64,000 nt of DNA from Actinomycetes bacterium. Lineage in GTDB: Bacteria > Actinomycetota > Acidimicrobiia > Acidimicrobiales > JABEUL01. The position numbers and the translations under genes were made by a program. How positions within the stretch are numbered: position 1 is the stretch's first letter; each line of letters starts with the position of its first letter. The stretch spans positions 27,777 through 91,776 of the forward strand of contig JAJYFT010000001.1 of NCBI GenBank assembly GCA_021790815.1, written 5' to 3'. The notes beneath the pieces were generated by a model. It worked only from the letters and a program-made list of their open reading frames with translations, was not told the DNA's origin and did not search any database. Below, piece by piece: positions 13,921 through 52,663 of this stretch.

Positions 13921-13940
13921 ATAGGGACTAAAGTCCCTAT
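13921..13940. promoter_or_regulatory. DosR/DevR-type box (perfect 14-bp core), candidate operator of the 13806..1001 operon
   Basis: ATAGGGACTAAAGTCCCTAT has perfect 9-bp inverted arms around AA. The core GGGACTAAAGTCCC equals the M. tuberculosis Dos box core GGGACTWWAGTCCC. It lies 115 nt upstream of the GTG at 13806, in the region divergent from a TetR gene. Confidence 0.7.
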
Positions 13941-23042: not shown

Positions 23043-23062
23043 GTAGGGTCTAAAGTCCCAAT
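23043..23062. promoter_or_regulatory. DosR-type box (1 core mismatch) upstream of the ACAD/ADC/NMO operon
   Basis: GTAGGGTCTAAAGTCCCAAT. The core GGGTCTAAAGTCCC differs from GGGACTWWAGTCCC at one position. It lies 20-40 nt upstream of a TATAGT -10-like hexamer. Confidence 0.6.
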
Positions 23063-24708: not shown

Positions 24709-24728
24709 AAAGGGACTTAAGACACTTT
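24709..24728. promoter_or_regulatory. weaker DosR-like box in the SQR / Ehr divergent region
   Basis: AAAGGGACTTAAGACACTTT has a perfect left half-site GGGACT plus TA spacer. The right half AGACAC differs from AGTCCC at 2 positions. It lies 52 nt upstream of the SQR start. Confidence 0.35.
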
Positions 24729-24950: not shown

Positions 24951-24984
24951 TATATATGACAAGATGATAAGATTGTCATATATG
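24951..24984. promoter_or_regulatory. 11-bp inverted repeat ending on a start codon of the Ehr operon
   Basis: ATATATGACAA (24952..24962) / TTGTCATATAT (24973..24983) with a 10-nt spacer. It covers the first annotated ATG (24964) and ends at the second ATG (24982). Confidence 0.4.
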
Positions 24985-25458
24985 AAAATAGTCAGCATGC
25001 TGAATAATATAATATCTAAGCCTGTTTCAAAAGGGTTTTCTAAAGGTAGGAACTCTTCTTCATCGCAATCCCCAAATAGATCTGTTGCATTTCGCCATGT
25101 CGATGTAGGTTCTTGCAATGCTTGCGAAATAGAAATTTCATCCGCATTTGGTCCAGTCTATGATGCATCGCGCTTTGGTATGTCTCTAGTTGCAAGTCCT
25201 AGACACGCTGATGGGCTGCTTGTGACAGGAGTAGTTACGCAAAACATGTACGGCCCTTTGATGAAAACATATGAAGCAACTCCAAAGCCCAAAATTATTA
25301 TTGCATGCGGTGACTGCGCTATAAACGGTGGAATATTTAAAGATAGCTACGGGGTCAAAGGTATTTTAAGTGATGTACTTGAAGTTAGCTATTCAATCCC
25401 GGGATGTCCACCACACCCACAACAAATAGTCGAAACTTTTAGAAATATTAATAGATAG
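24964..25458 (+). CDS. NuoB/HycG-like small subunit (4Fe-4S) of an Ehr/group-4-hydrogenase-like complex
   Basis: 164 aa. Cluster ligands are kept: GSCNACEIE, ACGDCA, GCPPHP. The start may be ATG 24982 or later. Confidence 0.85.
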   Translation: MIRLSYMKIVSMLNNIISKPVSKGFSKGRNSSSSQSPNRSVAFRHVDVGSCNACEIEISSAFGPVYDASRFGMSLVASPRHADGLLVTGVVTQNMYGPLMKTYEATPKPKIIIACGDCAINGGIFKDSYGVKGILSDVLEVSYSIPGCPPHPQQIVETFRNINR

Positions 25459-25460
25459 AA

Positions 25461-27461
25461 GTGCATCTACTTTTTTATTCATTTCTCGTAGGCTCTATTG
25501 GTTCATTCGCATCATTAGTGCTAACAAAAAAGTACAGAAATAAATTCGCATCATTCTGCGTAGTTCTTGAAGGGCTTATATGTTCATATGAAAGTCTTTC
25601 CATAATATCAAGCGGGAAAACAACTACCTTCAATTCAAATCAACTTCTTCCTTTTTTTGGAATTAGACTCTCCTTAGATCCGCTGAGCGCTTATTTTATT
25701 CTTATTACGTCGTTGCTAGCAATAGCAGTAGGGATATATCAACTTGGGTACATCAGACACTCAACTAAAGCAAAGACTCCTACTTTTATTTATCCATTTT
25801 TTTTCACTTCTATGGTCCTAGTGCCAATCTCTAATTCGGTTGCTACATTCATGGCTTCTTGGGAGATAATGGCAATAACATCGATACTTTTGGTGTTGAC
25901 AGACCACGCTAAAAACAATAACTCTGGGCATGCAACGCAGTGGTATGCACTCATGACTCATCTAGGGGCTGCGTCAATATTCATTGGCTTCTTAATTCTG
26001 TCACTTGGGACGAAGCACCAACAATTTTCATCTATAGTTATGTCTTCATCAAGTTTGTCAACAATTGAGAAGTCATTAGCTTTCTTTCTTCTATTTATAG
26101 GCTTTGCGTCCAAAGCAGGTGCTACCCCATTTCACGTTTGGTTACCACGAGCTCACCCACAGGCCCCTAGCCCAGTCTCAGCAATGATGTCTGGAGCTAT
26201 GGTCAACCTTGGAATCTACGGAATTATTAAAACTGGCATGACCCTGATTAAAGTCAGTGAAGGTTGGTGGTGGATAGTTGTAATTGCCATTGGAACGATA
26301 TCTGCAATTTACGGGGCGCTCCAATGCGTAACTAACTCAGACATAAAGAAACTTCTTGCTTATTCTACAATTGACAACGTTGGACTTATGATTATCGGTA
26401 TAGGCGCATCAGGGCTTCTAGCGACTGCGAAAGACGAAAAGTTTGCGTTGTTCATGATATCCGGAGTTCTATTTCAGATGTTAGCCCACTCAATTTTCAA
26501 AGGTTTGCTCTTTTTAAGTGCTGGCTCAATCCAATACTCTACTGGAAGTTTAAACCTTGACCAACTGGGAGGATTACTTAAAAAAATCCCGCTGACATCA
26601 ACATGTCTATTGATTGGAGCATTTTCAATCAGTGCACTGCCGCCTTTTTCGGGATTCTCAAGTGAGTGGGTTTTGTTCGAAGGGCTGTTTCGCTCAATTC
26701 TTCATTTATCGGGAGTAAATCGTCTGGCCGTCCTTTTTGGCCTATCTGGATTTGCTCTGGCAAGCGGTTTAACTGCTACTGCTTTTGTAAAAACTACGGG
26801 TATTGGATTACTCGGAGTAGCTCGATCAAGTCATGCGGAAACTGCCAAAGAAGTCCCTCCGACAATGCTGTTTTCAACGTTTCTATTAGCCCTATCTTGT
26901 TTAGTCATCGGAATAGTGCCTGGTTATTTCCTCAAACTAACTATGAAATCTTCACAGCTCCTATTCCCTGCTAAAAAACTATCTCCAAACTTTAAGTATG
27001 GAAGTATAGATCTTCCCAACCTCGCTACAAACATTGACCCATTGTTGCTACTAGTCCTCTTCACAATTGCACTTCTAATGATCCTTCTCCTTCTTAAGGC
27101 TGCGATCAAACGCAAAGTTAGAATCACCAATTCTTGGGGATGTGGGAATGAGTACAGTAATTCAAAAACTCAGTATACTGCGACATCTTTTGCTGAACCT
27201 CTACAAAGAGTTTTTGCTGATGTAATTAGACCAGATCAAGATTTAGTTGTTTCACACGTCGAAGAATCCCGTTTTTACGTAAACAATATTACTTATAGCA
27301 ACTTATCCCAAGATAGTATTGAACGTTTTGTCTATGTTCCGATTAAACGTGCAGTGACCACTTGGGGCAAGTTCGCCTCTCAGATGCAAAATGGGAGTAC
27401 ACATCGCTATCTAAGTCTAGGGTTTATAGTCCTCCTAATAGTTATACTGGTTCTTTCTTGA
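25461..27461 (+). CDS. NuoL/HyfB-like antiporter-type membrane subunit
   Basis: 666 aa, polytopic, GTG start. Contains the Mrp/NuoL block FASKAGATPFHVWLPRAHPQAPSPVSAMMSG. Confidence 0.85.
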   Translation: MHLLFYSFLVGSIGSFASLVLTKKYRNKFASFCVVLEGLICSYESLSIISSGKTTTFNSNQLLPFFGIRLSLDPLSAYFILITSLLAIAVGIYQLGYIRHSTKAKTPTFIYPFFFTSMVLVPISNSVATFMASWEIMAITSILLVLTDHAKNNNSGHATQWYALMTHLGAASIFIGFLILSLGTKHQQFSSIVMSSSSLSTIEKSLAFFLLFIGFASKAGATPFHVWLPRAHPQAPSPVSAMMSGAMVNLGIYGIIKTGMTLIKVSEGWWWIVVIAIGTISAIYGALQCVTNSDIKKLLAYSTIDNVGLMIIGIGASGLLATAKDEKFALFMISGVLFQMLAHSIFKGLLFLSAGSIQYSTGSLNLDQLGGLLKKIPLTSTCLLIGAFSISALPPFSGFSSEWVLFEGLFRSILHLSGVNRLAVLFGLSGFALASGLTATAFVKTTGIGLLGVARSSHAETAKEVPPTMLFSTFLLALSCLVIGIVPGYFLKLTMKSSQLLFPAKKLSPNFKYGSIDLPNLATNIDPLLLLVLFTIALLMILLLLKAAIKRKVRITNSWGCGNEYSNSKTQYTATSFAEPLQRVFADVIRPDQDLVVSHVEESRFYVNNITYSNLSQDSIERFVYVPIKRAVTTWGKFASQMQNGSTHRYLSLGFIVLLIVILVLS

Positions 27462-27481
27462 TATGACGAGAAAAGAGTAGC

Positions 27482-28426
27482 ATGACCGTCTTTAGTTTTA
27501 CAACATCTTTACTTCAATTAATTTTTATTCTCGCTTGCGCACCGCTACTAAACGGCATAATGTTAAAGCTCAAAGCACGTGCGGAACGAAGAGTTGGTCC
27601 GCCAATCTTTCAAACCTTCTTTGACCTAGCTAAGCTTTTCAAAAAAGAAAGACTCCGTTCACAAAATGCTAGTATCTTTTCAGCCCTTGCTCCTGTAGTG
27701 CTCATTTCATCAACAGTCGTAGTAATCATTGTTTCGCCAATACTTTCAACTCAAGAACTCTTTAAAACTTCAGGGGATCTCTTCGCAATAGTTTTCATAC
27801 TATTAGTTGGATCTCTAATGATCGCTCTATTAGGACTTGATCCGGGAACTCCTTTTGGTGGCTTAGGCTCAAGTCGCGCTATGACTATCTCTTCTCTTTC
27901 TGAACCGGCACTACTCGTCTCAATTGTAGCTATTTCAATTCAAGCAAAATCGACTAACCTTTCAACTATCGTTTCTGCCAACCTTTCCCATCCCATTTGG
28001 CTGGTTAGCCCACCGCATCTTTTAGCGATTTTCGCTCTTTTGATTGTAATCTTTGCTGAAGCAGGACGAATACCTGTTGACAATCCTGCGACCCACTTAG
28101 AACTGACCATGATTTACGAAGCCATGATTCTTGAAAGCTCTGGGGAAGACTTGGCATTAATTAAGCTTGGGGAATTTATGAGATTTACTCTTCTCTTATT
28201 GATTGTTGCAAACCTCTTCTTCCCATTTGGCATTGATACCCAAGCAAACTGGATTCAGCTAATTTTAAGTAGCGGAATTAGCCTTATAAAATTAACAATA
28301 CTAGGAAGCTTAGTAACGCTACTCGAGGTGACTCAAGCAAAGCTCCGCCTGTTTCGTGTACCTGAACTTCTTGCTGGAGCATTCGTACTAGCAGTTCTCG
28401 CTGTCATCTCGGAGTTCGTGGCCTAA
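27482..28426 (+). CDS. hycD: NuoH/HycD-like membrane subunit
   Basis: 314 aa, 8 TM-like segments. AEAGRIPVDNPATHLEL resembles the NuoH/HycD loop (E..R.PFD..E.E.EL). Size and position match mycobacterial hycD as I recall it. Confidence 0.75.
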   Translation: MTVFSFTTSLLQLIFILACAPLLNGIMLKLKARAERRVGPPIFQTFFDLAKLFKKERLRSQNASIFSALAPVVLISSTVVVIIVSPILSTQELFKTSGDLFAIVFILLVGSLMIALLGLDPGTPFGGLGSSRAMTISSLSEPALLVSIVAISIQAKSTNLSTIVSANLSHPIWLVSPPHLLAIFALLIVIFAEAGRIPVDNPATHLELTMIYEAMILESSGEDLALIKLGEFMRFTLLLLIVANLFFPFGIDTQANWIQLILSSGISLIKLTILGSLVTLLEVTQAKLRLFRVPELLAGAFVLAVLAVISEFVA

Positions 28427-28427
28427 A

Positions 28428-29084
28428 ATGACGACTAACTATTTTTCGATGACCTACCTTTTTTCAGGAACTGTCTTAGTTTGCGCCATTATCGCATTGT
28501 GGAGAAAAGACATTAAAGCAATAATATATTCCGTTGCTTTTCATGGTGTAGCTCTCGGAATTGTTGGATTTTCAGAGGGACTTAGTCGACATGACTTAGC
28601 CTTAGTTCAAGCTGGAATTGAAACATTCATCCTAAAAGGAATTGTATTCCCAATCTTAATTTTTAGAATATTTAATAGATCAGGGGGGCAGAGAGACGTT
28701 GAGCCACTCATTAATACGACTGCCTCAATGCTTTATACGTCCTTATTTATTGGAATTCCGTTTTTTAGCATTGGACGTCTTCCATATATTGCAAGTAGCC
28801 CACAATCAAAATTAGTTCCAATTGGATTTGCCACGTTATTAGTTGGGTTTTATATTTTAATAACAAGGCGACGCATAATTTCTCAAATAGTAGGTCTTAT
28901 TATTTTTGAAAATGGAATATCTCTTATCGCTTTTCTGCTTATTTCTGGGCTTCCTCTTTTGGTTGAACTAGGCGAATCATTAGATGTCTTGCTTGTGGTA
29001 ATAGTTTTGCGAGTACTTGCAATTACAATTCAAAGTCGAATTGGCAATGTTGATCTAGCTGAAATGAAGGAATTACACGACTAA
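28428..29084 (+). CDS. hycP: HyfE/HycP-like small membrane subunit
   Basis: 218 aa, about 6-7 TM. Its position between the HycD-like and NuoN-like genes matches hyf and mycobacterial hyc clusters. Confidence 0.65.
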   Translation: MTTNYFSMTYLFSGTVLVCAIIALWRKDIKAIIYSVAFHGVALGIVGFSEGLSRHDLALVQAGIETFILKGIVFPILIFRIFNRSGGQRDVEPLINTTASMLYTSLFIGIPFFSIGRLPYIASSPQSKLVPIGFATLLVGFYILITRRRIISQIVGLIIFENGISLIAFLLISGLPLLVELGESLDVLLVVIVLRVLAITIQSRIGNVDLAEMKELHD

Positions 29085-30580
29085 TGCTTATTGATTTGAT
29101 CCTAATTCTCCCACTAACTTCCATATTACTGAGCTTACTATTCAGATGGTCAGTTGTATTAGGTGCTACCTTGGCCTTTTTTAATCTAGCACTTTTAATT
29201 TTTGGGATAGTTCTCGCTTTCAATATTGAGACAACAGGTCCTGTAACTGCAATTGATGCGACTTTCTACGCAGATTCTTTAAGTTCGTTCATGGTGATTG
29301 TGATAGGCCTAATTTCATTTCTTTCATCCCTATTTTCAATTCGTTTTTCGATCAAGGAACTTGCTAAAAACCAATCTACACTTTTGGAAATATCTAGATA
29401 CACTCTTTTAACTCAGATATTCATCTTCACAATGCTTTTTGCAGTTGTCTCCTCTAGTGTTGCGATGATATGGGTTGCTGTTGAAGCAACAACAATTGCA
29501 ACAACGTTTTTGGTAGGATTTCGAAAAAATAAGAAAGCCCTTGAAGCCTCTTGGAAGTACATAATTATTTGTTCGGTTGGTGTTGGGCTTGCTTTCGTTG
29601 GAACCCTTTTCTTTTATTTTGCTTCTGCTCACATAGGTGGCCCCATCTCAAGTAGCAGACCGGTCTCTTTAGATTGGACATTTTTAATAAAGAATTCAAA
29701 AAAACTGAATCCGCAAATAATCAAGTTTGGATTCGGATTCATTCTCCTTGGTTACGGAACTAAAACGGGGCTAGCCCCGATGCACAGTTGGCTTCCAGAC
29801 GCTCATAGCCAAGCACCTGCTCCAGTTTCGGCATTAATGTCTGGTGTTCTAATCACTGTTGCCTTTTATACAATTCTACGATTTAAGGCAATAACTGACA
29901 TCGCAGTAGGGAGATGGTTTTCTCAAGATCTCTTGATAGCAGTAGGTCTTCTCTCTCTTCTTTTAGCTACATCACTTTTAATAACTCAAAAAGAAATTAA
30001 ACGAATGCTCGCTTATCACAGCATTGAACACATGGCTCTAATCGCACTTGGAGCTGCTGCAGGTTCTGAAATTGCAATTGCTGCTGTACTGCTCCACATT
30101 TTAGGTCACGGGCTTGTTAAAGCAATTCTATTCATTGCTTCAGGTGAAATGCTCATAACAGAAGGAAGCACAGAAATAGCAAAACTCAAGTCATTATTAA
30201 CCCATAAGCCTCTACTAGGTGGCATTTTTGGTGTTGGGCTGTTGGCACTTTTAGGGTTACCACCTTTTAGTCTTTTTACAAGTGAGTTCGCAATGATGAA
30301 ATCAGAGATTTCAGTAGGTCTAGGTTGGGTGGTAGGAATATCCCTTGTGTTAATGGCAGTAATCTTCGGAGTCGTTGTAAGTCATGCTAGACATATTCTC
30401 GTTGGTGAAAGTTCAGGTAGACAAACGTTGAAAACTAGCAAACTGTCTAATCCAATACGAGCATCTCGTCTCACTACAACTCCTTTAGTTTTGGGTTTAA
30501 TACTAAGCGCAGCAATTGGCGTTGTGTCTTGGCCATTGCAAACCCTTCTTTTGTCTGCTGCAAAAGTGATCTCAGGATGA
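29084..30580 (+). CDS. hycQ: NuoN/NuoM/HyfF-like antiporter-type membrane subunit
   Basis: 498 aa. Block GYGTKTGLAPMHSWLPDAHSQAPAPVSALMSG. Confidence 0.8.
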   Translation: MLIDLILILPLTSILLSLLFRWSVVLGATLAFFNLALLIFGIVLAFNIETTGPVTAIDATFYADSLSSFMVIVIGLISFLSSLFSIRFSIKELAKNQSTLLEISRYTLLTQIFIFTMLFAVVSSSVAMIWVAVEATTIATTFLVGFRKNKKALEASWKYIIICSVGVGLAFVGTLFFYFASAHIGGPISSSRPVSLDWTFLIKNSKKLNPQIIKFGFGFILLGYGTKTGLAPMHSWLPDAHSQAPAPVSALMSGVLITVAFYTILRFKAITDIAVGRWFSQDLLIAVGLLSLLLATSLLITQKEIKRMLAYHSIEHMALIALGAAAGSEIAIAAVLLHILGHGLVKAILFIASGEMLITEGSTEIAKLKSLLTHKPLLGGIFGVGLLALLGLPPFSLFTSEFAMMKSEISVGLGWVVGISLVLMAVIFGVVVSHARHILVGESSGRQTLKTSKLSNPIRASRLTTTPLVLGLILSAAIGVVSWPLQTLLLSAAKVISG

Positions 30581-30587
30581 TCTGCAA

Positions 30588-32120
30588 ATGACAAATAACA
30601 AAGGATGTCGGGAACTAAATGTAGACCCACAACATTCAAGCTACACATTTGAGCAAAAATTAGTTCCACCAAATAATCTCGTCGTAGAAAGTGAAGAACT
30701 TCTCAAGAACGGGTACCGCCTCGGGTTAGTATCAGCTCAAGATTATGGTGAAATAAAGTATATATCATACGTATTCTTGGCTGGGAATCCTGATCGAAGA
30801 GTGGAGATCATAGTGGAACTGAATCCCAAAAAGTCTGAGGTTCCATCATTAGGCTCCCTATCTTTTAGCGCCGGTAGATTTGAACGAGAATTTTTTGATC
30901 TTTTTGGCATAGTGCCATTAACTCATCCATTTTTACGACCTCTTGTATTCCATGGAAATTGGCCGATTAATTGGCATCCAATGGCATACAATGCAACTCA
31001 GCCGAAATTTGACGATGAAGGTACATACGAATTTCCATTTGTTGAGGTCAGTGGGGATGGCATATTTGAAATTCCAGTAGGTCCAGTTCATGCCGGACTC
31101 ATCGAGCCTGGTCATTTCAGATTTTCTGTGGTCGGTGAAACTATCGTAAAGATGAAAGCAAGACTTTGGTTTCTTCACAGAGGAATTGAAAAATCTTTTG
31201 AAGGCAAAACAATCGAAGGAGCACTTGAACTTTCTGAAAGAATTTCAGGTGACAGTGCGGTAGGTCACTCTCTTGCATTTTCATTGGCAGTTGAAGATTA
31301 CCTCAACATTAAGGTTGATGAAAATGAACAACTTCAACGAGCGCGTCTTCTTGAGCTTGAACGAATATATAACCATGTTAGTGATATTGGTGCCCTCTGC
31401 AATGACGTCGGTTACGGTGTTGCGAACGCATATGCTCAAATACTCAAAGAAGATCTTTTGAACTTTAATGCCAGCCTTACCGGTCATCGCTTGCTTCGCA
31501 ACTGTGCTGACTACTGCCGAAATAACAGACTTGATGACTTTAACATTAGTCAAATCAAGGATTTCACCGATAAGTTTGAAGATCTTATAAATCTAATTGA
31601 AAACAACTCAAGCGTCTTAGATCGCTTCGTTGGAACCGCAACTCTTTCACTAGATGATACAAAGACGCTAGGTGTATTAGGAGTCGTTGCAAAAGGTTCA
31701 TCTCTCCCATCTGATGCAAGGTACTCTCATCCCTTCGCTTTCAAAACCCCTGGCGTTACACCAACCACTGAAGAATCAGGGGACGTATTTTCGCGATACC
31801 GAGTAAGAGTCAACGAGGTTCGAGAATCATTTCAATTTGTCAAAGACCCTCATCAAGGTTTCGCTCTAGATTCAAATAGTAACTTTAAGAACAACAAAAA
31901 CATAAAACAATGCGGTATCGGGATTGTTGAAGGTTGGAGGGGGACAATTGTTTCACGAGTTGAACTAAATAGCGATAACACTATTAAGCGTTACAAAATT
32001 GTTGATCCATCATTTCTAAATTGGCCTGCACTATCAGTTGCTCTTAAAGACACCATTGTGCCCGACTTTCCTCTCGCAAACAAGAGTTTTAACCTTTCGT
32101 ACTCTGGAAATGATTTGTAG
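30588..32120 (+). CDS. hycE: NuoC-NuoD/HycE-like large subunit lacking all four Ni-Fe cysteine ligands
   Basis: 510 aa. NuoC-like N-domain (FEREFFDLFGI), then VGPVHAGLIEPGHFRF. The expected RxCGxCxxxH site reads ERISGDSAVGHS. The expected C-terminal DPCxxC reads FNLSYSGNDL at the protein end. Confidence 0.8.
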   Translation: MTNNKGCRELNVDPQHSSYTFEQKLVPPNNLVVESEELLKNGYRLGLVSAQDYGEIKYISYVFLAGNPDRRVEIIVELNPKKSEVPSLGSLSFSAGRFEREFFDLFGIVPLTHPFLRPLVFHGNWPINWHPMAYNATQPKFDDEGTYEFPFVEVSGDGIFEIPVGPVHAGLIEPGHFRFSVVGETIVKMKARLWFLHRGIEKSFEGKTIEGALELSERISGDSAVGHSLAFSLAVEDYLNIKVDENEQLQRARLLELERIYNHVSDIGALCNDVGYGVANAYAQILKEDLLNFNASLTGHRLLRNCADYCRNNRLDDFNISQIKDFTDKFEDLINLIENNSSVLDRFVGTATLSLDDTKTLGVLGVVAKGSSLPSDARYSHPFAFKTPGVTPTTEESGDVFSRYRVRVNEVRESFQFVKDPHQGFALDSNSNFKNNKNIKQCGIGIVEGWRGTIVSRVELNSDNTIKRYKIVDPSFLNWPALSVALKDTIVPDFPLANKSFNLSYSGNDL

Positions 32121-33702: not shown

Positions 33703-36474
33703 TCAGCCAGCTTTTTTAATCGAAACATAGATTGGCCGATCAACTGGAGCAGGCTGCCACTCCATAGGTGCATACCTAAGATGGCCGTATCCGCCTGCCA
33801 TATTTAACCATTTAACCATTCCAGGTTCAACTTCATTTGATCCGTCATGATTCTTAAACATGTGAGAGTCCCAACCATTGTAGATTGTTAGACCACTCGG
33901 ACGTTGAGAACTTGAAAGTTTCACTCTTACCTTATACTCTCCAACGTCATTAGATACCTCAATAAAGTCATTATCACTTATACCTAGTTCTTTTGCATCA
34001 TTTGGGTGCATGACTGCATGAGGTTCACCTCTATGGGTCTCTAACAACCACTTATTTCCCATATTCATTGCGTGAATTGACCACCTGTTATGACCGCCTG
34101 ACATTTTGAAGTAGTGATCGCCACCCATTAGAGGTGGAGACTTATGCACTGGGATATCTTCTCCAGCATCAAAAAACCAGTCATGTTCTATTAAAAATTG
34201 TGCTCTTCTAGTTAACGTCGGATAAGGTGTACCTCTCTCAATATGGTCACGAAATGGAGAGTGTGTTTCATTTTCTGGAAATGGCGAGGACTGTCCTTTA
34301 GCCATTGGCGAAATGCCCCATTCTTTGAACTTTATCCATCCATCTTTTCTTAGAGTTTCAAGTGTAGTAGCTTCTGGAAGCGTACCCGAATAAGCAGTGT
34401 CTCTCACCATCTCATTTCCAACGTCTTCATAGTTAAGTAAGTAACCATTTAATGTAAAGTTATCCCATAGCTTCGCATATGACTTGGAAATTTCTTGGCC
34501 AAACAGATCCTTCCCTTCATCAAACTTTTCAAGACCTCTCTCTGCTGCCACTTGCGATATCTTAAGTGATAGCGCTGCAAAAATCTCCCACTCATCTTTT
34601 GCCTCGCCAGGAGGTTCTGCTGCCTTATCGCTTAGCTGAAGAATTAACATAGATGGACTCGGCAGGTGAAAGTTAACCTTTTCGTAGTGCTGAGCTGCTG
34701 GAAGAAGAATGTCTGAGTTAAGACCGGTAACCGACATTCTCACGTCTACTGTAACGATAAGCTTAAGCTTGTTAAAAAGTGAGTCAATGACTACCCTTCG
34801 TCCACCTCTTGTTCTTCTAAGCATATTGCTTCCACATTCAATCAGCACTCTTAGATTTGTTTCAGGCCCAGGTTTTACTAAGCCGTCATACCAACCCTTC
34901 CCAATTGCTTCGTTTAGATAGTCATCAAAACTCTTTATCATCTTAGGATCATTAAAAGTTTTATTGTTCCAACGCTCCCGGTGTCCCTCGTGGAAGTACC
35001 ACAAGAAAAATGCGGGGAACATCGCTCTTCCACCGCTAGCAGCCATCTGCCTCCAGAGTTCAATGCTAGCTAAGACTTCATCCAGAGAAGGATCCTGATC
35101 CATCATTGCTTTTTCAACTTCTGCCATTGAGGTAAAAACATCATCAGCGCCTGCTACTCCAGGTCTCTCCTTTACCATCGTAGAAGTCTGTCCATCAAAA
35201 AGTCCTATTGCCCAGCAGTTTATCCCTGTACCTTTCTTGCCCCAATTTCCCGATATGCCAAGCAATAGATTCATCGTTCTTTGATACAGATCGGAGTGGT
35301 AGGCTTTGCAAGCTCCCATACCCATGAGAATCTTTGTTTTTTTGGTGGCAACTTTCCTGCTAAGTTGTCTTAAAAGGTCAGGATTCACCGTAGTGATGCT
35401 TTGAGTCATTTCGGGCGTGTACTCTTCATTAAGTGTTCTCTTAATCTTCTCATATAGTGGCTCAACTTCAACCTCTGAACCATCGATAAGCTTAACTTTA
35501 TAAGATCCAGTTAACTCTGCAACTTTAGAAGTTAACAGTTCAGTTTTGCTCGCCTCTTTTAACTCAAAACCAGAATTTAATTTAACTAAATGATAAAAAA
35601 GTTCCTTATCACCACCTTCTCTTAATTCAGACTCTCTCAAAAAAGTCCCTCTGTCTTTTCTGATCAAAAGGCTTAAGTCGGTCTGCGTCTTAATGAAATC
35701 TTCATCAGCTAGTCCCTCTTCTAAAATTACCTGACACATCGAAAGAGCAAGTGCTGGATCCGAACCCCATTCAACTGGAACATGATAGTCAACATGAGAA
35801 TGCGAAGGAGAAACGTCAGGTGAAAACAGTACGATCTCTCCACCATGATACCTTGACTCACTTAGATAATGAAAAAATGGTATACACGTATAGGCAGGGT
35901 TAGTGTGCCAGAGTATCAGCAGTTCTGAGTGAAATATATCATCATTAGATCCGATTGGATAAAATCTTCCGAAAGTTAAATGGTGACCAAGCGCAAGGTC
36001 GTTAATGGAGCCATTAATATCTGTTATTACGCCTCCAATTGTTCTCATGAATCTGTGAACAGCTGGAGCTACTACAACTTCAGGTGTACCTTCATGGATT
36101 ATAGATTCTGGCCCATCTTCTTCTATCGCGTCTACTATTGAATTTGCAATCTCACCAAGTGCCTCATCCCAAGTAATTCTCTCCCACTGTCCACTTCCTC
36201 TTTCTCCAACTCTCCTCATTGGGTGCAAGAGCCTGTCTTCACTGTCAAGCTGTTGTGACCATGCTGCACCTTTCTGGCACCCTAAAGGATTCATGTCAGG
36301 CACGCCTTCTTCAAAAGTTGGAAGAGTTCCAGTAACCTCTTCTCTTATGATTTTCCCGTCTTTTACATATACCCTATATGGGCAAGCTCCTGGATAGCAA
36401 TCAACACAGTGTGAACCGTGCGCAACTGAATCAAACTCAATTCGCTTTCTATATGAATCTTCTACTGTAGTCAT
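33703..36474 (-). CDS. molybdopterin oxidoreductase catalytic subunit, NarG/EbdA-like, paralog alpha-2, no Tat signal
   Basis: 923 aa. HCVDCYPGACPYRVYVKDGKIIREE ... MNPLGCQKG (H-x3-C-x4-C-xn-C). It shares many identical blocks with alpha-4. The N-terminus MTTVEDSYRKRIEFDS has no signal. Its ATG overlaps the rSAM stop (ATGA at 36471..36474). Confidence 0.85.
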   Translation of the reverse strand: MTTVEDSYRKRIEFDSVAHGSHCVDCYPGACPYRVYVKDGKIIREEVTGTLPTFEEGVPDMNPLGCQKGAAWSQQLDSEDRLLHPMRRVGERGSGQWERITWDEALGEIANSIVDAIEEDGPESIIHEGTPEVVVAPAVHRFMRTIGGVITDINGSINDLALGHHLTFGRFYPIGSNDDIFHSELLILWHTNPAYTCIPFFHYLSESRYHGGEIVLFSPDVSPSHSHVDYHVPVEWGSDPALALSMCQVILEEGLADEDFIKTQTDLSLLIRKDRGTFLRESELREGGDKELFYHLVKLNSGFELKEASKTELLTSKVAELTGSYKVKLIDGSEVEVEPLYEKIKRTLNEEYTPEMTQSITTVNPDLLRQLSRKVATKKTKILMGMGACKAYHSDLYQRTMNLLLGISGNWGKKGTGINCWAIGLFDGQTSTMVKERPGVAGADDVFTSMAEVEKAMMDQDPSLDEVLASIELWRQMAASGGRAMFPAFFLWYFHEGHRERWNNKTFNDPKMIKSFDDYLNEAIGKGWYDGLVKPGPETNLRVLIECGSNMLRRTRGGRRVVIDSLFNKLKLIVTVDVRMSVTGLNSDILLPAAQHYEKVNFHLPSPSMLILQLSDKAAEPPGEAKDEWEIFAALSLKISQVAAERGLEKFDEGKDLFGQEISKSYAKLWDNFTLNGYLLNYEDVGNEMVRDTAYSGTLPEATTLETLRKDGWIKFKEWGISPMAKGQSSPFPENETHSPFRDHIERGTPYPTLTRRAQFLIEHDWFFDAGEDIPVHKSPPLMGGDHYFKMSGGHNRWSIHAMNMGNKWLLETHRGEPHAVMHPNDAKELGISDNDFIEVSNDVGEYKVRVKLSSSQRPSGLTIYNGWDSHMFKNHDGSNEVEPGMVKWLNMAGGYGHLRYAPMEWQPAPVDRPIYVSIKKAG

Positions 36475-37760
36475 TTCTGCCTCCTTTTGGCTTTAACTTC
36501 TTTACTGAGAGCACTTTCGCTCCCCTTGAGTTCTTTTGAAACTGTACTTACTGGGAGGTTTAACTTAGCAAGCTCAACCATCCGCTTGAAAATAGGACCA
36601 GTATGCACAAAATACTGTTTGAGACCAATGCACAATTCGTGAACACCGTCACGGGCTCCGTTACGACCAACTTCATGAACAATTACATAACTGCTGCCTA
36701 ATTTCTTTCTATCTTTAGGACATCCTCCTCGACACAGATTTAGAAACTCACAAGACAAGCAATCATCACTTAATCTATCTTTCTTTGCATTTCCAAATTC
36801 CTCTTGAAAATCGGACTGAATCATGTCAATTAACTTATCGTTGGAGATATTTCCTAATAGATGCTCGTTGTTTACAAAGTGATCACATGAATACACCGAA
36901 CCATCATGTTCAACAACAAGCGCATTCCCACAAGTCTCTGCATTAATACAAAGACTCGCAGGTTTGTTTGAATGTGCTAACAGTGACTCAACAAAAGCCT
37001 GAACTATGATTGTTTCAACATCGTTTCTTACCCAAATATCAAATACAGTATTTAAAAAGTATCCGTACTGCTCAGGTTTGACTGATTCTTTTTTTAAGCT
37101 ACCATTTGAATCCCGGGCAACTATTGGAAGAAACTGTAACCAATTTGCTCCTAGACTTTTGAAGTAGTTGTATATTTCAGCCGGGTGATCAGCGTTAGTA
37201 GAATTTAAAGTACATAAAATATCAGGATTTATGCCAACTTCTAACAAGTTTTTAAACCCTTTAATTACATCTCGATGCGTTGAATACCCGTTTTTATAAC
37301 GCCTCGAAGCATCGTGTAACAATTTTGGTCCATCTAAACTCAATCCAACCCAGAACTTATTTTCGTAGAGAAACTTACACCACTCGTCATCTAACAAAAC
37401 ACCGTTAGTTTGAATAATATTTACAATCTTTTTCTCTACATCTTGCTCTTCAGCAATTCGTTTTTGAATCTCAAGTACTTCTTTAAAGAACTTAATGCCC
37501 ATTAAAGTTGGCTCACCACCATGCCAAACAAACTGAACTAATTCAAAATCTGAGGATTCAATTACATTTTTTACATAAGAATGCAAAACATCCTTTTGCA
37601 TTCTAAAATGTTCGCCTTTTTTAAAAAGGGATTTTTTTTCTAGGTAATAGCAGTATGTACAGTCCAAGTTGCATATCGGACCGCATGGCTTAACCATAGT
37701 AATAAACTCACGACTTCTGTCCTTTTTAATCTCGTTACTAAGATCTTGTGCCGTGGTCAT
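36471..37760 (-). CDS. radical SAM / SPASM-domain enzyme, anaerobic sulfatase-maturase (anSME)/QhpD-like
   Basis: 429 aa. CNLDCTYCYY radical SAM cluster motif near the N-terminus, GGEPTL, and C-terminal auxiliary-cluster motifs CGNALVVEHDGSVYSCDHF and CLSCEFLNLCRGGCPKDR. Confidence 0.85.
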   Translation of the reverse strand: MTTAQDLSNEIKKDRSREFITMVKPCGPICNLDCTYCYYLEKKSLFKKGEHFRMQKDVLHSYVKNVIESSDFELVQFVWHGGEPTLMGIKFFKEVLEIQKRIAEEQDVEKKIVNIIQTNGVLLDDEWCKFLYENKFWVGLSLDGPKLLHDASRRYKNGYSTHRDVIKGFKNLLEVGINPDILCTLNSTNADHPAEIYNYFKSLGANWLQFLPIVARDSNGSLKKESVKPEQYGYFLNTVFDIWVRNDVETIIVQAFVESLLAHSNKPASLCINAETCGNALVVEHDGSVYSCDHFVNNEHLLGNISNDKLIDMIQSDFQEEFGNAKKDRLSDDCLSCEFLNLCRGGCPKDRKKLGSSYVIVHEVGRNGARDGVHELCIGLKQYFVHTGPIFKRMVELAKLNLPVSTVSKELKGSESALSKEVKAKRRQK

Positions 37761-37771
37761 TTTCTCACCGT

Positions 37772-37870
37772 TTACGTCGCCAATTCTTCAGAATTACAAT
37801 TCTTACTATTTATCAACACCGAGTTGCACTTCTTTCCAGCGAAAACTCCCGTGTAGTAAAAGTCCGTCAT
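37772..37870 (-). CDS. candidate 32-aa Cys-containing peptide upstream of the radical SAM gene
   Basis: Below the ORF-track cutoff. ATG 37870..37868 overlaps the upstream TGA (ATGA). It encodes MTDFYYTGVFAGKKCNSVLINSKNCNSEELAT with a repeated K-x-C-N-S motif. TAA lies 11 nt before the rSAM ATG, with GGTGAG in between. A chance ORF is not excluded. Confidence 0.4.
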   Translation of the reverse strand: MTDFYYTGVFAGKKCNSVLINSKNCNSEELAT

Positions 37871-40302
37871 GTTTTCATTTCTAACTTAACTAAACCTAAC
37901 TTTGAATCTATTTCGTCTCTTTCGGGACAAAAGCTTCCGCCTAGATGCTCTGTAGATAATGATGCTGCAACGTTTGCCACCATAATTGCACGATCAATCG
38001 AATCCCCTTTTGAAAGTGCAGCTAAAAGCGCACCTGTATGAATGTCGCCTGCGCCTGTTGTGTCTACCACAACACTCGTTATTGTCTTTACATGAAACAC
38101 TTTCCCAGAACTGTCGTTATAGTAACATCCGTCATCCCCATGTCTTAATACCACTAGACCATCTTTCTTAATAAACCCAGAAAGTGTTTTTACTTGGTCA
38201 AATGGATCGTCTTGCCCAGTTAGGATATTCGCCTCAGTTTCATTCAGAGTCAGAATGTCAGTATGCTTAAGTGCTTTCCTCAACTCTTCTGTTCCAGGTG
38301 AGATAGGGCCTGGATCAATTACTATCGTACGGTCAATCGAATTATCTTCAATGAAGGATTTAATAGTAGGACCGCTAACGTCATAGAGTAGGTCGTAACC
38401 TGACACATATATAAAGTCTCCACTTCTGACGTGAACTTTCTCCAAGTCACTAGCCAACAGTTTCGATTCAATCCCAGGAGAAGTTATAAAAGTCTTTTCC
38501 CCATCTTTTTCTACAATACCAACGGTAAAACCTGAATCACCTTGTTTCGAAATACCAAGTGGTGCTTCGACCCCTTTAAATTCAAGATCTCGTGCTACAG
38601 TAAGCCCGAAAGGTCCATTCCCAACGTTACCTACGTACTGACTCTTTAGGCCCAACTTACTAGCAGCAGATAGAACGTTGTAGCCACCCCCAGATGATAT
38701 CTGCTTTCCTGTTGCGAATATATCTTTCCCTCTTACTGGCAGCGTGTCAGAATAAAGCAAAACATCTACCAAAATCGATCCCACTACCAACAACCTTGAT
38801 GGGGTGTCTATTTCATTACGCACTTTGCTTCTAAGATATTTTTCAACAGCTTCACTTGCGCCAACTTCACTTGCGCCGACTTCACTCAGGCCAGTCTCTT
38901 CTAGTTGCCTAATTAAAGTATCTGAATTAAAATGCGTTTTTCTCTTTATGATCAAAGACATCACAATATAGACGAAAGAGGAAATTAGAAATGCCACTAC
39001 GAAACCAAAACTTCCACTTCCTATAAATCCTACTGCTAAAGGTCCTTTAAACCAGGGGCACGTAGTCGCAAGAAGTCCAATACTTGAGCCCACAAAAAGT
39101 GCAGCTAGCCCACTCATATTTGCATGGAAGAGATCAGATGAATTCGATAACATATATTGTGTCGTTCGTTTCAAATATCTCTTCAATAAGTAGTCAGCAA
39201 TTACAACTCCACCAAACGCAGCTAGAAAGGCTGCCAAAAGAAGCAGGAAATTTTCAAAATCTTGCGTAATGGATGAACTCACAAATATTAAATAACTCGA
39301 AACTCCAAGTACGATTGCTGCATCAACAAATACAGTGAAAGTTCTTTTAATCGGAACCCTTAAAGCAAGAAGATTAAGTCCCGATGAGTAGCAAGCTAGA
39401 TCAGTTTCTAATATCATGCCTCCGCATGCAGATAGAAATAAAGGTACTGCAAAAAGTAGCGGAACCCCTACCCCTAAAACCGCTACTGGGTTCAAGGTTG
39501 CATCAAGACTGCCGTACTTAGAACTCAATAAATATCCTGCGAGAACTAGAACACTCACAGGGACTGATGATGCAACTACAACTGAAGTAAAGAGTTTCTT
39601 TGAACTTAAACTGCGTGGAAGATACCTGCTGTAGTCGCCAGCTAAATTGATCCAGCTAATTCCCGTTCCAGCCGCAATGATACTTATTGCAATTAATACA
39701 TCATTGAAACTTGATGGCTTAGCATTAGGCAACGAAGTATGTTTTATGAGAATGTAAACAACTACCAACACAGTAAGTAATCCAAAAATATAAGATGCAA
39801 CTTTTTGAAACTTTAAAATTACCCTGTGACCGAAATACCCTAATGCCAACGAAACAGATACTACGACTATTACGCAGATTATTTCACTTGTCTTACTGAC
39901 AGGAATCTTAAATATATCGTTTAAGAGTGCAGATAGCGACCATGCAGCAAGAACTGTTGTGATAGCCTCCCAGCCAAGAATGTTCACCCAACTAACAATT
40001 GTTGGAACAAAGTTTCCCGACTTACCGAACGCAACCTTTGAAGATGTGAGAGTTGGCAAGCCAGAGTTCTTCCCAATGACAGAGACCATCCCAACTAAAA
40101 TGAATGACCCAAACGATCCAATTACTGTAGCTGCGATTGCCTGGGAAAGATTTAGTCCAAGTTGAGCGATTATTACGCCAAAAACTAGTGAAAGTATCCC
40201 AATATTTGCCCCAAACCAAACCCACGCCACAGAACTAATGTTCCCAGCTCTCTCGCTATCTTCTACTATCTCTATACCTTTTATCTCTTTAATCATGGAC
40301 AA
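37867..40302 (-). CDS. fusion protein: NCS1 (purine-cytosine/vitamin permease-like) transporter + PfkB/ribokinase-family kinase
   Basis: 811 aa. Residues ~1-455 are polytopic (about 12 TM, NCS1/CodB-like start ...VAWVWFGANIGILSL). A linker holds SEVGASEVGASE. The C-terminal ~320 aa has PfkB motifs SSGGGYNVLSAASKLG and DTTGAGDIHTGALLAAL. Confidence 0.75.
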   Translation of the reverse strand: MSMIKEIKGIEIVEDSERAGNISSVAWVWFGANIGILSLVFGVIIAQLGLNLSQAIAATVIGSFGSFILVGMVSVIGKNSGLPTLTSSKVAFGKSGNFVPTIVSWVNILGWEAITTVLAAWSLSALLNDIFKIPVSKTSEIICVIVVVSVSLALGYFGHRVILKFQKVASYIFGLLTVLVVVYILIKHTSLPNAKPSSFNDVLIAISIIAAGTGISWINLAGDYSRYLPRSLSSKKLFTSVVVASSVPVSVLVLAGYLLSSKYGSLDATLNPVAVLGVGVPLLFAVPLFLSACGGMILETDLACYSSGLNLLALRVPIKRTFTVFVDAAIVLGVSSYLIFVSSSITQDFENFLLLLAAFLAAFGGVVIADYLLKRYLKRTTQYMLSNSSDLFHANMSGLAALFVGSSIGLLATTCPWFKGPLAVGFIGSGSFGFVVAFLISSFVYIVMSLIIKRKTHFNSDTLIRQLEETGLSEVGASEVGASEAVEKYLRSKVRNEIDTPSRLLVVGSILVDVLLYSDTLPVRGKDIFATGKQISSGGGYNVLSAASKLGLKSQYVGNVGNGPFGLTVARDLEFKGVEAPLGISKQGDSGFTVGIVEKDGEKTFITSPGIESKLLASDLEKVHVRSGDFIYVSGYDLLYDVSGPTIKSFIEDNSIDRTIVIDPGPISPGTEELRKALKHTDILTLNETEANILTGQDDPFDQVKTLSGFIKKDGLVVLRHGDDGCYYNDSSGKVFHVKTITSVVVDTTGAGDIHTGALLAALSKGDSIDRAIMVANVAASLSTEHLGGSFCPERDEIDSKLGLVKLEMKT
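38851..38890. repeat. 15-bp in-frame tandem repeat in the inter-domain linker
   Basis: TTCACTTGCGCCAAC / TTCACTTGCGCCGAC / TTCACTCAGG... encodes (SEVGA)x2 SE on the minus strand. Confidence 0.8.
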
Positions 40303-42609: not shown

Positions 42610-44088
42610 CTATCCTTTCTTATAGGGATCAACACTTCCTTCGTGGAAGTCATTAAAGTGGCTTAGAATCTGCGGTGTAATTGCGTAGCCGTCTCCATTT
42701 TCTGTGTAGTACTGACGATAAAAATCAACATCAATGTGATGCACTTGAGCTGAAATTTTTGCTCTGACAGGGTTTATATGTGAAGGTGCACAGCCATACT
42801 TATTAACTATGTATTCGACCGTTTTTGTAGCAGCCTCAATTGCCCAATCTGAGACGTATGACTTAGGATTTTTTAGTATTTCTTCTAAAACATCTTTTTT
42901 GTACGGACCGCCAACGTGATCCAAAAAGTTGTCTTCCCTTGAGAATGCTGACCCTTTCTTGTTCTTAAGGTCCACTACATATTCAACTGCTGACCGTGCA
43001 TCTTTGAACTTAGTGCAAGGCACCATGACTGATTCTTTAAAACCTTCTAAACCTTGACAAGTTTGAGTGGTCGAAGGATTGGTCTTTGGGTCCCTAGTCA
43101 AAAATGAAAAACCTAAGCCTTGAGTAATCTCTGGATAGGCACCGAGAACTAAATCATCTGCATAGCTTCCCGTCATCCAAGCTCCTAGCCCAAGTGCTTC
43201 AGAGGCAAGGCGAATATTTTGAACTATCGCGCCAACTTGACCAGCGTGAAGCATAAGTGCAAGTTCGTCAAACGCTGGGATTGGAAATCCAACCTCTAAA
43301 AACCCTGGCTTAATCCATTCTTGACAACCTGCAGGTTCATTGGTGTCAGGATCCAAAAGGTAAAATCCAGACCATTCGTAAGAGATTAAAAGTTGGTTGA
43401 ACCACTCAACCCCAACATCACCAATAGGCAAGAACCATGTACTTCCAGGCCGATTTAGATTATACTGACCAGGACCAGTTGCATTTACTATCTTGGTTCC
43501 TTCGGGCGATGAAGGCCAGCTAATTTTTGGTCGTTCTTTTGAAACTACAACTTTGCCAGAGCGGTAGTAATCAAGAATCTTATGAAAATCCTCTTCACCT
43601 TTTATCTCAACAAGACTTAAATCTTCGCTTGGAGGACGATAGATTGACACACCGTCATCATTTATTATAAATAGTTCAACACTCAAATCATTCGAAGAGG
43701 ATGGAACTGTTCGTCCAACGTACGATAAAAGACCTGAAAGTGCTCCATTAACAGGAATATCACCGAGTATTAGCCCATTAGGCCCTAGCGCAGCCCAACA
43801 AATTAAAGCCTCCTCAAGTTCACTTAAGGGTACTGGTTCTCTAGTCGAAACATAGTTAAGCGGACCTTTTGCCTGCGTTGCAGGTTTTTCACTTGACCAT
43901 TCGAAGTTCTCTTGCTCTCCTGACTCAATTTGATAACCTAGCCCGACTCGACGAGTTCTAAGAGTAGTAAGTAGATTGAAAAAACTACCAGTTCCATTAA
44001 ACGCTTTCTTAATCTGGCTAAGTTGAGACTCTGTTATCTCATCAGAGACACTGTCATTTGATAACGAGTCTTTTTTCTTGAAAATCAT
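42610..44088 (-). CDS. large nitroreductase-superfamily (SagB/ThcOx-like) flavoprotein
   Basis: 492 aa. LRTRRVG ... PLSELEEALICWAALGPNG and HAGQVGAIVQNIRLASEALGLGAWMTG fit nitroreductase-fold signatures. Its start overlaps the stop of alpha-3. Confidence 0.55.
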   Translation of the reverse strand: MIFKKKDSLSNDSVSDEITESQLSQIKKAFNGTGSFFNLLTTLRTRRVGLGYQIESGEQENFEWSSEKPATQAKGPLNYVSTREPVPLSELEEALICWAALGPNGLILGDIPVNGALSGLLSYVGRTVPSSSNDLSVELFIINDDGVSIYRPPSEDLSLVEIKGEEDFHKILDYYRSGKVVVSKERPKISWPSSPEGTKIVNATGPGQYNLNRPGSTWFLPIGDVGVEWFNQLLISYEWSGFYLLDPDTNEPAGCQEWIKPGFLEVGFPIPAFDELALMLHAGQVGAIVQNIRLASEALGLGAWMTGSYADDLVLGAYPEITQGLGFSFLTRDPKTNPSTTQTCQGLEGFKESVMVPCTKFKDARSAVEYVVDLKNKKGSAFSREDNFLDHVGGPYKKDVLEEILKNPKSYVSDWAIEAATKTVEYIVNKYGCAPSHINPVRAKISAQVHHIDVDFYRQYYTENGDGYAITPQILSHFNDFHEGSVDPYKKG

Positions 44089-47508: not shown

Positions 47509-47519
47509 ATTCTCTCCTT

Positions 47520-48632: not shown

Positions 48633-48653
48633 TTGTTTATTGCTCCTTTTGAC

Positions 48654-52223: not shown

Positions 52224-52243
52224 ATAGGGTCTAAAGTCCCTAT
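52224..52243. promoter_or_regulatory. DosR-type box (1 core mismatch) upstream of the alpha-4 operon
   Basis: ATAGGGTCTAAAGTCCCTAT lies 138 nt upstream of the GTG at 52086. Its flanks are identical to the 13921 box. Confidence 0.65.
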
Positions 52244-52633: not shown

Positions 52634-52663
52634 TAGGTGAATAGCAGTTAAACTATTCACCTA
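52634..52663. promoter_or_regulatory. perfect 11-bp inverted repeat abutting the start codon of the 52663 gene
   Basis: TAGGTGAATAG (52634..52644) - cagttaaa - CTATTCACCTA (52653..52663). The last base is the A of the ATG. The left arm contains the SD-like AGGTGA and the right arm its complement. Confidence 0.45.

Follow-up and report, generated by a model that had tools for sequence, protein, structure and literature searches.

Complexes of the energy-converting hydrogenase-related (Ehr) family, reportedly defined by Marreiros et al. in 2013, are very widespread. They occur in Actinomycetota, Rokubacteria, Nitrospira, ammonia-oxidising archaea and the candidate phyla radiation (CPR), and they include the hypoxia-induced operon of M. 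tuberculosis. The hyc genes of Rv0081-Rv0087 have been described as homologues of EHR complexes, whose function is undetermined (PMC6728331), and Rv0081 is a Cys-free, metal-independent autorepressor of its operon (10.1101/465575). Reviews covering Nitrospira, ammonia-oxidising archaea, CPR and Margulisbacteria describe Ehr complexes that lack CxxC motifs and are of unknown function (PMC10284858, PMC10432482 and PMC6349859 among the sources), and in Geobacter proteomics the abundance of Ehr merely correlates with growth on formate. The literature searched yielded no study of the function or the structure of an Ehr complex. Here we analyse a six-gene module on contig JAJYFT010000001.1 of an uncultured actinomycete, within a stretch of 64 kb that we refer to as the window. 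Sequence comparison indicates that the module is a minimal Ehr complex of actinobacterial type, as in M. tuberculosis Rv0082-Rv0087. The Ehr family and its mycobacterial member are already described, and the window provides a new, divergent member of this known family.

The large subunit and its former Ni-Fe site

The large subunit was aligned residue by residue with E. coli HycE (7z0s_E) using HMMER (E=1.4e-44, 156 bits). In this alignment RISGDSAVGHS lies over RVCGICGFAHS and NLSYSGND over DPCYSCTD (HycE second in each pair), and the four Ni-Fe cysteines are replaced, in register, by Ser220, Ser223, Ser504 and Gly507. Both CxxC Ni-Fe motifs are absent (S, S, S, G), as is typical of Ehr complexes. 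An earlier note on this DNA had claimed the cysteine loss and proposed an alignment with HycE as a check. The claim is borne out, and a scenario in which the cysteines are present but shifted is excluded. The protein terminates at Leu510, in the column of the Arg with which sequences that retain all four cysteines (CCCC sequences) end. HycE is processed after Arg537, so that Leu510 would coincide with the C-terminus of mature HycE. On that basis, the large subunit would have no cleavable C-terminal extension for an endopeptidase. None of the marks of a group 4 [NiFe]-hydrogenase (RxCGxC, DPCxxC and a cleaved C-terminal extension) was found. Because the Ni-Fe site is gone and replaced by an oxygen-rich motif, and no cleavable extension is predicted, the alignment shows that the predicted complex cannot make or split H2.

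To place the large subunit among its relatives, we relied on a protein search and a genome comparison. The search covered 5.8 billion proteins and gave 7,996 relatives among 8,000 scored candidates. At the C-terminus, all 120 matches listed, which are 51-66% identical, carry FNLSY[A/S]GNDL or a variant that differs by one residue. The ER[I/V]SGD... pattern was found in 87 of these 120, the remainder being uninspected. The genome comparison comprised 80 loci besides the window, 77 of them with a readable large-subunit C-terminus. The large subunit is Cys-less in 74 of the 77, and CCCC is kept only in loci from Gemmatimonadales (L053), Negativicutes (L075) and Peptococcaceae (L077). When 69 Cys-less sequences were set against the three CCCC sequences, S220, D222, D273, S504, G507 and L510, together with three minor positions, emerged as Ehr-specific determinants. 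In the Cys-less sequences, S220 and D222 are each conserved to 90% or more; the CCCC sequences have neither. The ER[IV]SGD[ST] motif is conserved across relatives. About 90 other positions, including the EPGHFRF loop and the E-x-x-R-G motif, are common to Cys-less proteins and true hydrogenases. Collectively, these comparisons indicate that the thiolate site is replaced by a conserved oxygen-rich one (Ser220, Asp222, Asp273, Ser504 and Gly507-Asn-Asp-Leu), and that the loss of the cysteines is an ancient, conserved family trait under selection and not local decay.

A neighbour-joining tree of 73 large subunits (no bootstrap), rooted on the three CCCC sequences, places the window inside the Cys-less clade. 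The window sits there on a long branch beside Acidimicrobiia within the actinobacterial clade, with Mycobacterium and Mycolicibacter in the sister group. The Cys-less sequences group apart from true group 4 hydrogenases, as expected of Ehr, although this tree is indicative only. An AlphaFold2 model of the large-subunit monomer had a predicted local distance difference test score (pLDDT) of 67, falling below 50 at both former ligand segments (residues 144-197 and 476-510). Its best fold match was again 7z0s_E (E=4e-23), followed by NuoCD, and no Ehr entry was among the fold matches listed.

Several relatives differ in gene content. One Nitrospirota metagenome-assembled genome (MAG; L079) has two tandem Cys-less modules, a second, more distant group 4-like module lies beside the first in L061 and L055, and the HyfB-like gene is duplicated in L043, L059 and L074. 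The large subunit of L039 has STRPGSTGPPC in place of the C-terminal motif, and full-length versions of its two antiporter-like genes were not detected, suggesting that this copy is degraded or mis-assembled.

Gene set, gene orders and the ArsR regulator

The module spans positions 24964-32120 on the plus strand (Table 1), and the coordinates and lengths that had been given for its six open reading frames (ORFs) proved exact. The six packed ORFs look like one operon, because their junctions are only -1 to 20 nt. Their Pfam domains are Oxidored_q6 (NuoB), Proton_antipo_M (in two proteins), NADHdh, and Complex1_30kDa with Complex1_49kDa/NiFeSe_Hases. The model NF008556, matched by the HyfE-like protein, is named 'hydrogenase 4 membrane subunit'; this protein also has a weak NuoK-type Pfam match, and the position of its gene in the operon is kept in most relatives. 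For all four subunits compared with solved structures (HycE, HycG, HycC and HycD types), the best match was E. coli formate hydrogenlyase (FHL; 7z0s). The Pfam, NCBIfam and PDB matches of the six proteins are those of subunits homologous to the group 4 hydrogenase/complex I core, as in Ehr complexes. These profile and structure matches show that the six predicted proteins map one-to-one onto the core of a Hyf/FHL-type group 4 hydrogenase.

Table 1. Positions of the module genes, the former Ni-Fe motifs and the associated regulatory features in the window.
Feature	Position	Strand	Match or remark
NuoB/HycG/MbhJ-like small subunit, 164 aa	24964..25458	+	PF01058 9.8e-30
HyfB/HycC-like antiporter-type membrane subunit, 666 aa	25461..27461	+	NCBIfam 'hydrogenase 4 subunit B', 542 bits (below the cut-off of 667)
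HycD/NuoH-like membrane subunit, 314 aa	27482..28426	+	PF00146 (NADHdh) 3e-39
Small HyfE-like membrane subunit, 218 aa (named 'HycP' in mycobacteria)	28428..29084	+	NF008556 1.1e-18, below cut-off
HyfF-like antiporter-type membrane subunit, 498 aa ('HycQ')	29084..30580	+	NCBIfam 'hydrogenase 4 subunit F', 368 bits, below cut-off
Fused NuoC + NuoD/HycE-like large subunit without Ni-Fe ligands, 510 aa	30588..32120	+	PF00329 + PF00346 + PF00374
Former N-terminal Ni-Fe motif ERISGDSAVGHS, residues 217-228	31236..31271	+	Cys1 to Ser220, Cys2 to Ser223, plus Ehr-specific Asp222
Former C-terminal Ni-Fe motif SFNLSYSGNDL-stop, residues 500-510	32085..32117	+	Cys3 to Ser504, Cys4 to Gly507
Perfect 11-nt inverted repeat ATATATGACAA-N10-TTGTCATATAT	24952..24983		Encloses the ATG of the first module gene
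Cys-free ArsR/SmtB-family regulator, 126 aa	33024..33404	-	PF01022, NF033788

The small subunit aligned with HycG (7z0s_G, 4e-32) and MbhJ (6cfw_J, 1e-31) through the CxxC...C...C pattern. C51, C54, C118 and C148 sit at the [4Fe-4S] ligand positions of both proteins, confirming the four cluster cysteines read earlier from the sequence. The HyfB/HycC-like subunit matched HycC (7z0s_C, 5e-57) over residues 64-590 and retains motifs read as the Glu of transmembrane helix 5 (TM5) and the Lys of TM7. The HycD/NuoH-like subunit matched HycD (7z0s_D, 1.6e-30) with its acidic loop residues aligned. The HyfF-like subunit matches MbsH, MbhH and NuoN, and TKTGLAPMHSWLPDAH (TM7 Lys), the TM5 Glu and the TM12 Lys are retained as read.

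Two gene orders were found among the loci. The B-first order (B-L-H-E-F-CD) occurs in 46 loci, including five of Mycobacterium/Mycolicibacter, and is also that of the window. It is found in the closer relatives of the window, namely Actinomycetota, Rokubacteria/Methylomirabilota, a group with CPR members and some Chloroflexi. In relatives at a greater distance, among them Nitrospira, Thaumarchaeota, Methanomassiliicoccales, Firmicutes and Proteobacteria, the gene for the small subunit comes at the end (B-last). A 2x[4Fe-4S] ferredoxin gene lies in or within 3 kb of the module in 0/47 B-first compared to 7/22 B-last loci. An ArsR-family gene is adjacent in 32 of the 46 B-first loci (24 of them directly upstream and co-oriented) compared to none of the 22 B-last loci. 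The four cluster cysteines are conserved in both architectures (40-45 of 46 B-first loci and 22/22 B-last loci). With its B-first order, the common Cys-less signature and its nesting in the actinobacterial clade, the module agrees with the earlier note's identification of an Ehr-type non-hydrogenase that is the counterpart of Rv0082-Rv0087.

Five B-first loci (L051, L060, L068, L069 and L073) have also lost the [4Fe-4S] cysteines of the small subunit, which read TCDD, SEGD or DCGD. CPR members (Daviesbacteria and Saccharibacteria) belong to this sub-lineage, as do one MAG each of Bdellovibrionales and Thermoleophilia. The large subunits of these loci still carry SGD...SYxGNDL and the membrane subunits are kept. 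Judged from these residues, their complexes would have no recognisable redox cofactor site.

The ArsR gene of the window lies 904 nt downstream of the operon on the opposite strand and is convergent with it, an atypical arrangement. The protein has no Cys, no ELCV(C/G)D box and none of the alpha5 His/Asp/Glu ligands, which are the metal-binding signatures named in the Rv0081 structure paper. Its identity is 61-63% to the ArsR encoded directly after the large-subunit gene in L002, L003 and L013, the nearest loci of Acidimicrobiales, and 45-51% to the ArsR proteins whose genes precede mycobacterial modules. When flanking ORFs were clustered, only ArsR recurred beside modules; ORF calling was crude in the high-GC loci, and the tblastn counts are more reliable. 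The Rv0081-like ArsR noted earlier 0.9 kb downstream was thus upheld by the distance, by the missing Cys and metal motifs and by the adjacency in B-first relatives. These results suggest that it is the probable cognate, Rv0081-like regulator of the module.

In a near-identical assembly (L001, GCA_027458815.1, 99.8% identity), a 1.1-kb insertion sequence (IS) with a DDE_3 transposase lies between the large-subunit gene and ArsR. The insertion, at ~12026-13122, corresponds to position ~32612 of the window, which does not carry it, a presence/absence polymorphism in the same organism. The presence of the IS in L001 shows that the spacer between operon and ArsR is prone to rearrangement.

The perfect inverted repeat at the start of the first module gene is a candidate operator or start-codon hairpin. 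If arms must be 11 nt or longer and the gap 16 nt or shorter, the 64 kb contain three perfect inverted repeats compared to 0.4 expected. No counterpart of the repeat at the first module gene was found upstream of the window ArsR or in relatives. The other two lie at 52634-52663, ending at the start of an unannotated 214-aa ORF (52663-53307), and at 37578-37604, inside a radical-SAM gene. A different palindrome, built on TTAGCAA/TTGCTAA, is common to three actinobacterial loci (two Streptomyces and one Spirillospora).

Proposed mechanism and rival explanations

We consider that the module probably, although far from certainly, encodes a single-cluster, ion-translocating redox complex of Ehr type and not a hydrogenase. 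The peripheral arm consists of the small subunit with one [4Fe-4S] cluster and the fused NuoC-NuoD large subunit. The membrane arm is formed by the HycD/NuoH-like subunit, the HyfE-like subunit and the two antiporter-like subunits, with the residues read as ion-translocating Glu/Lys. The single cluster would be reduced by a soluble one-electron carrier whose gene lies elsewhere and for which a low-potential ferredoxin is the most plausible candidate; the carrier would dock at the usual HycF/NuoI face. Charge beside the remodelled pocket would be relayed via the EPGHFRF loop and the HycD-like subunit to drive translocation of protons or sodium ions by the antiporter-like subunits. Menaquinone is the probable membrane acceptor to which the electron would exit. 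Like the mycobacterial operon under Rv0081, the module is probably under the control of the Cys-free ArsR-type repressor encoded nearby.

The former Ni-Fe pocket could itself be a re-purposed site in which a hard metal ion or a small polar substrate is bound beside the [4Fe-4S] cluster, a tentative proposal that we regard as doubtful. Its oxygen donors may be Ser220, Asp222, Asp273, Ser504, Tyr505, Asn508, Asp509 and the free C-terminal carboxylate of Leu510. If this is true, Ehr chemistry would be unlike that of hydrogenase, complex I or MBS, and the retention of the motif in lineages without an Fe-S cluster would point to a ligand-gated or ion-binding role.

Several observations weigh against a single-cluster redox complex, or against the details given above. 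The donor, the acceptor and the direction of electron flow are assigned by analogy only, and no partner gene is conserved beside the module. The AlphaFold2 monomer is disordered precisely at both former ligand segments. Gly221 occupies the position of the Tyr in 'drmdY' of Aquifex NuoCD, presumably the quinone-ligand Tyr of complex I, and because of this replacement the former Ni-Fe pocket does not look like a complex I quinone site. The ArsR gene is convergent, 0.9 kb away and not co-transcribed with the operon, and no shared ArsR operator was found in the window and relatives. Loss of the Fe-S cysteines with the large-subunit motif kept, as in the five loci described above, may mean that redox chemistry is not the essence of the family. 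A redox-independent role thus stays in play for the family, although not obviously for the clade of the window, since the cluster cysteines are conserved there.

The loss of Fe-S cysteines also speaks for a rival explanation in which the complex is a redox-independent ion transporter, an Mrp-like cation/proton antiporter gated by the remodelled pocket, with the peripheral arm as a structural or regulatory remnant. The five loci without Fe-S cysteines keep both SGD...SYxGNDL and the membrane subunits, the antiporter-like subunits are the best-conserved functional elements, and no electron-donor gene is linked to the module in the loci compared. However, all four cluster cysteines are kept by the window, by the inspected loci of actinobacteria and mycobacteria and by most of the other relatives. 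This argues that the cluster is functional here, and we consider a pure transporter quite unlikely. In another rival explanation, the same complex works in reverse. Membrane potential would push electrons uphill from the quinol pool to a low-potential carrier such as ferredoxin, and the complex would supply reductant. One cluster and two antiporter-like pumps are reversible in principle, and Cys-less relatives occur in nitrifiers (Nitrospira L048, Thaumarchaeota L057 and Nitrosotenuis L063), which must make low-potential reductant from high-potential donors. These nitrifier relatives belong to the B-last architecture, however, and the M. tuberculosis operon is described as hypoxia-induced, a condition expected to favour disposal of reductant over its production. 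We judge reverse flow to be unlikely.

Two further explanations assign a known chemistry to the complex. The divergent neighbour of the module is a genuine sulfide:quinone oxidoreductase (SQR), with which an Mbs-like sulfane-sulfur (polysulfide) reductase could work. P. furiosus MBS offers a precedent, being a group 4 descendant that has lost the Ni-Fe cysteines, has kept the ion-translocating membrane arm and reduces polysulfide. The large subunit of the window nevertheless resembles HycE (156 bits) far more than MbsL (6u8y_L, 39 bits), the NuoI-like subunit and the Mrp module of MBS are absent from the window module, and SQR is adjacent in 0/80 other loci; such a reductase is therefore highly improbable. 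A working formate hydrogenlyase or [NiFe]-hydrogenase would agree with common annotation, with the database name 'Ni,Fe-hydrogenase III large subunit' and with a weak PF00374 match at the N-terminal motif. This explanation is effectively refuted by the alignment, in which all four metal ligands are substituted in register and no C-terminal extension for endopeptidase maturation is seen. The window also lacks hyp, hycI, HycF and formate dehydrogenase genes, and its molybdenum (Mo) enzymes are of the ethylbenzene-dehydrogenase type. We give a working hydrogenase next to no weight. The single-cluster, ion-translocating redox complex remains the reading that we prefer.

Genomic neighbourhood and comparison with known systems

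The SQR gene lies divergently beside the module, and its product matched Aquifex SQR (3hyv) over its full length (240 bits) with both redox cysteines aligned. A tblastn of 12 window proteins against the 80 loci was used as a partner test. SQR and a Mo-enzyme of the window were both rejected as conserved partners, as neither adjoins any other module. The identity of the neighbour given in the earlier note therefore stood, while its link of the module to sulfide did not. Its link to hypoxia and DosR fared no better. The partial Dos-like box that it cited (24709-24728) agrees with 12/20 consensus positions, and there are 263 such sites in the window compared to 252 +/- 14 in shuffled sequences. 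The box is thus at chance level, and the promoter region of the module has neither a Dos-like site nor the DosR box that marks the DosR regulon. No match to the DosR box TTSGGGACTWWAGTCCCSAA within three mismatches was found anywhere in the window.

An 18-bp palindrome, TAGGG[A/T]CTAAAGTCCC[T/A]A, occurs at 13922-13939, 23044-23061 and 52225-52242 (5 strand-hits compared to 0.06 expected), and its core is the DosR-box core GGGACTnnAGTCCC. The three copies lie upstream of minus-strand catabolic operons encoding a flavin adenine dinucleotide (FAD)-oxidoreductase (divergent from TetR), ACAD-ADC-NMO and an ethylbenzene-dehydrogenase-like Mo-enzyme, and none is at the Ehr promoter. Directly downstream of one Mo-enzyme gene, at 1001-3075 (minus strand), lie genes for a sensor kinase of PAS-HisKA_3 type (468 aa) and for a response regulator of the NarL/DosR family (222 aa). 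Assignment of the palindromes to a DosR orthologue was rejected, as this regulator scores 125 bits for DevR/DosR compared to 141 for VraR and 123 for NarL and is equally similar to all three. It is a possible binder of the 18-bp palindromes.

Accessory genes were sought by scanning practically all non-nested ORFs of 100 aa or more with Pfam and all frames of the window for CxxCxxCxxxC. These scans found no Hyp, HycI, HycF/NuoI or formate dehydrogenase, in keeping with the absence of hyp, endopeptidase, HycF/NuoI and formate dehydrogenase genes asserted previously. The four Mo-enzymes are of the ethylbenzene-dehydrogenase type, scoring 151-168 bits with the Fdh-alpha model (cut-off 666). They are paralogous alpha subunits of the type-II dimethyl sulfoxide (DMSO)-reductase family, encoded at 3079-5844, 33703-36474, 44088-46838 and 49270-52086, all on the minus strand, and score 600-720 bits with the EbdA model. 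All four begin at profile position ~45-48 and, because they have no twin-arginine leader, are apparently cytoplasmic. Genes recognisable as gamma (EB_dh), beta (Fer4_11) and delta (chaperone) accompany only the enzyme at 49270-52086 and lie at 46852-49259. A radical-SAM/SPASM gene (36471-37760) comes after the Mo-enzyme gene that lies beside ArsR.

Candidates for a soluble low-potential carrier are limited in the window to a 133-aa 2x[4Fe-4S] ferredoxin with 16 Cys (58595-58996, minus strand) and a 736-aa ferredoxin-domain/GltD-like flavoprotein (60717-62927, minus strand). They lie 26-30 kb from the module and nothing ties them to the Ehr genes. An unusual transporter-kinase fusion of 811 aa is encoded at 37867-40302 (minus strand), with a cytosine/purine/allantoin-type permease (PF02133, residues 13-415) joined to a PfkB-family sugar/nucleoside kinase (PF00294, residues 503-792).

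The local context of the module (SQR and Mo-enzymes) is not conserved, and the role of Ehr is no more testable here than in the mycobacterial or Geobacter systems. What the comparison provides is a concise signature for the family, together with a 'minimal' sub-type that has one cluster and a linked ArsR but lacks a ferredoxin subunit. The signature is useful for picking a tractable model and for annotation, because mislabelling of Ehr genes as subunits of hydrogenase-3/4 or NADH dehydrogenase is routine.

Among known systems, complex I shares with the window homologues of NuoB, NuoC, NuoD, NuoH and NuoL/M/N in an L-shaped core, and the NuoD fold was matched. In contrast to complex I, no NuoE/F/G, NuoI or NuoA/J homologues were identified in the window, and Gly221 stands at the position of the quinone-ligand Tyr, so that NuoEFG, NuoI and the NuoD quinone-ligand Tyr/His are not in evidence. 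The 13 subunits of P. furiosus MBS include an Mrp module and a NuoI-like subunit. Chains of MBS/MBX (6u8y) match the large, small and membrane subunits of the window, although the large subunit scores only 39 bits (6u8y_L), and neither an Mrp module, nor a NuoI-like subunit, nor closeness to MbsL was found. Every subunit compared had its best match, in sequence and in fold, with E. coli FHL (HycBCDEFG, 7z0s) and the Hyf hydrogenase-4, and the two antiporter-like subunits and the HyfE-like subunit are Hyf-like in content. Unlike FHL/Hyf, the module lacks the Ni-Fe ligands, HycF, the HycB/FdhF input module and a C-terminal extension for processing, and its gene order differs.

The Ehr complexes of Geobacter sulfurreducens (GSU0739-45, known to us from the literature only), Nitrospira, ammonia-oxidising archaea and CPR resemble the module in being group 4-derived with both CxxC motifs absent. 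Relatives in Nitrospira, Thaumarchaeota and Methanomassiliicoccales have the same SGD...SYxGNDL signature. The loci retrieved for these comparison groups, none of them from Geobacter, are unlike the window in being B-last, sometimes with a ferredoxin domain (7/22) and never with an adjacent ArsR (0/22).

The closest described counterpart is Rv0081-Rv0087, which was compared through five Mycobacterium/Mycolicibacter loci (L008, L009, L012, L024 and L025), M. tuberculosis being absent from the retrieved loci. The gene sizes in M. persicum (ArsR 115, B 159, E 219 and F 488 aa) match what we take to be the Rv0081-Rv0087 gene sizes. The window differs from these mycobacterial orthologues in its ArsR, which is downstream and convergent and not first in the operon, in a large-subunit identity of only 48-50%, and in having no DosR box at the promoter. 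Its host, low-GC (about 41%), uncultured and probably related to Acidimicrobiia, is also unlike M. tuberculosis. No flanking gene other than ArsR recurs beside the modules, an Rv0088-like gene not having been specifically searched for. In both, however, the same six genes of similar sizes stand in the B-first order B-L-H-E-F-CD, without a ferredoxin subunit and with a Cys-free ArsR adjacent. The mycobacterial large subunits are likewise Cys-less, with the motifs ER[IV]SGD[ST]... and SFN[LQ]SYAGNDL, and the small subunits keep CxxC...C...C, as in the window.

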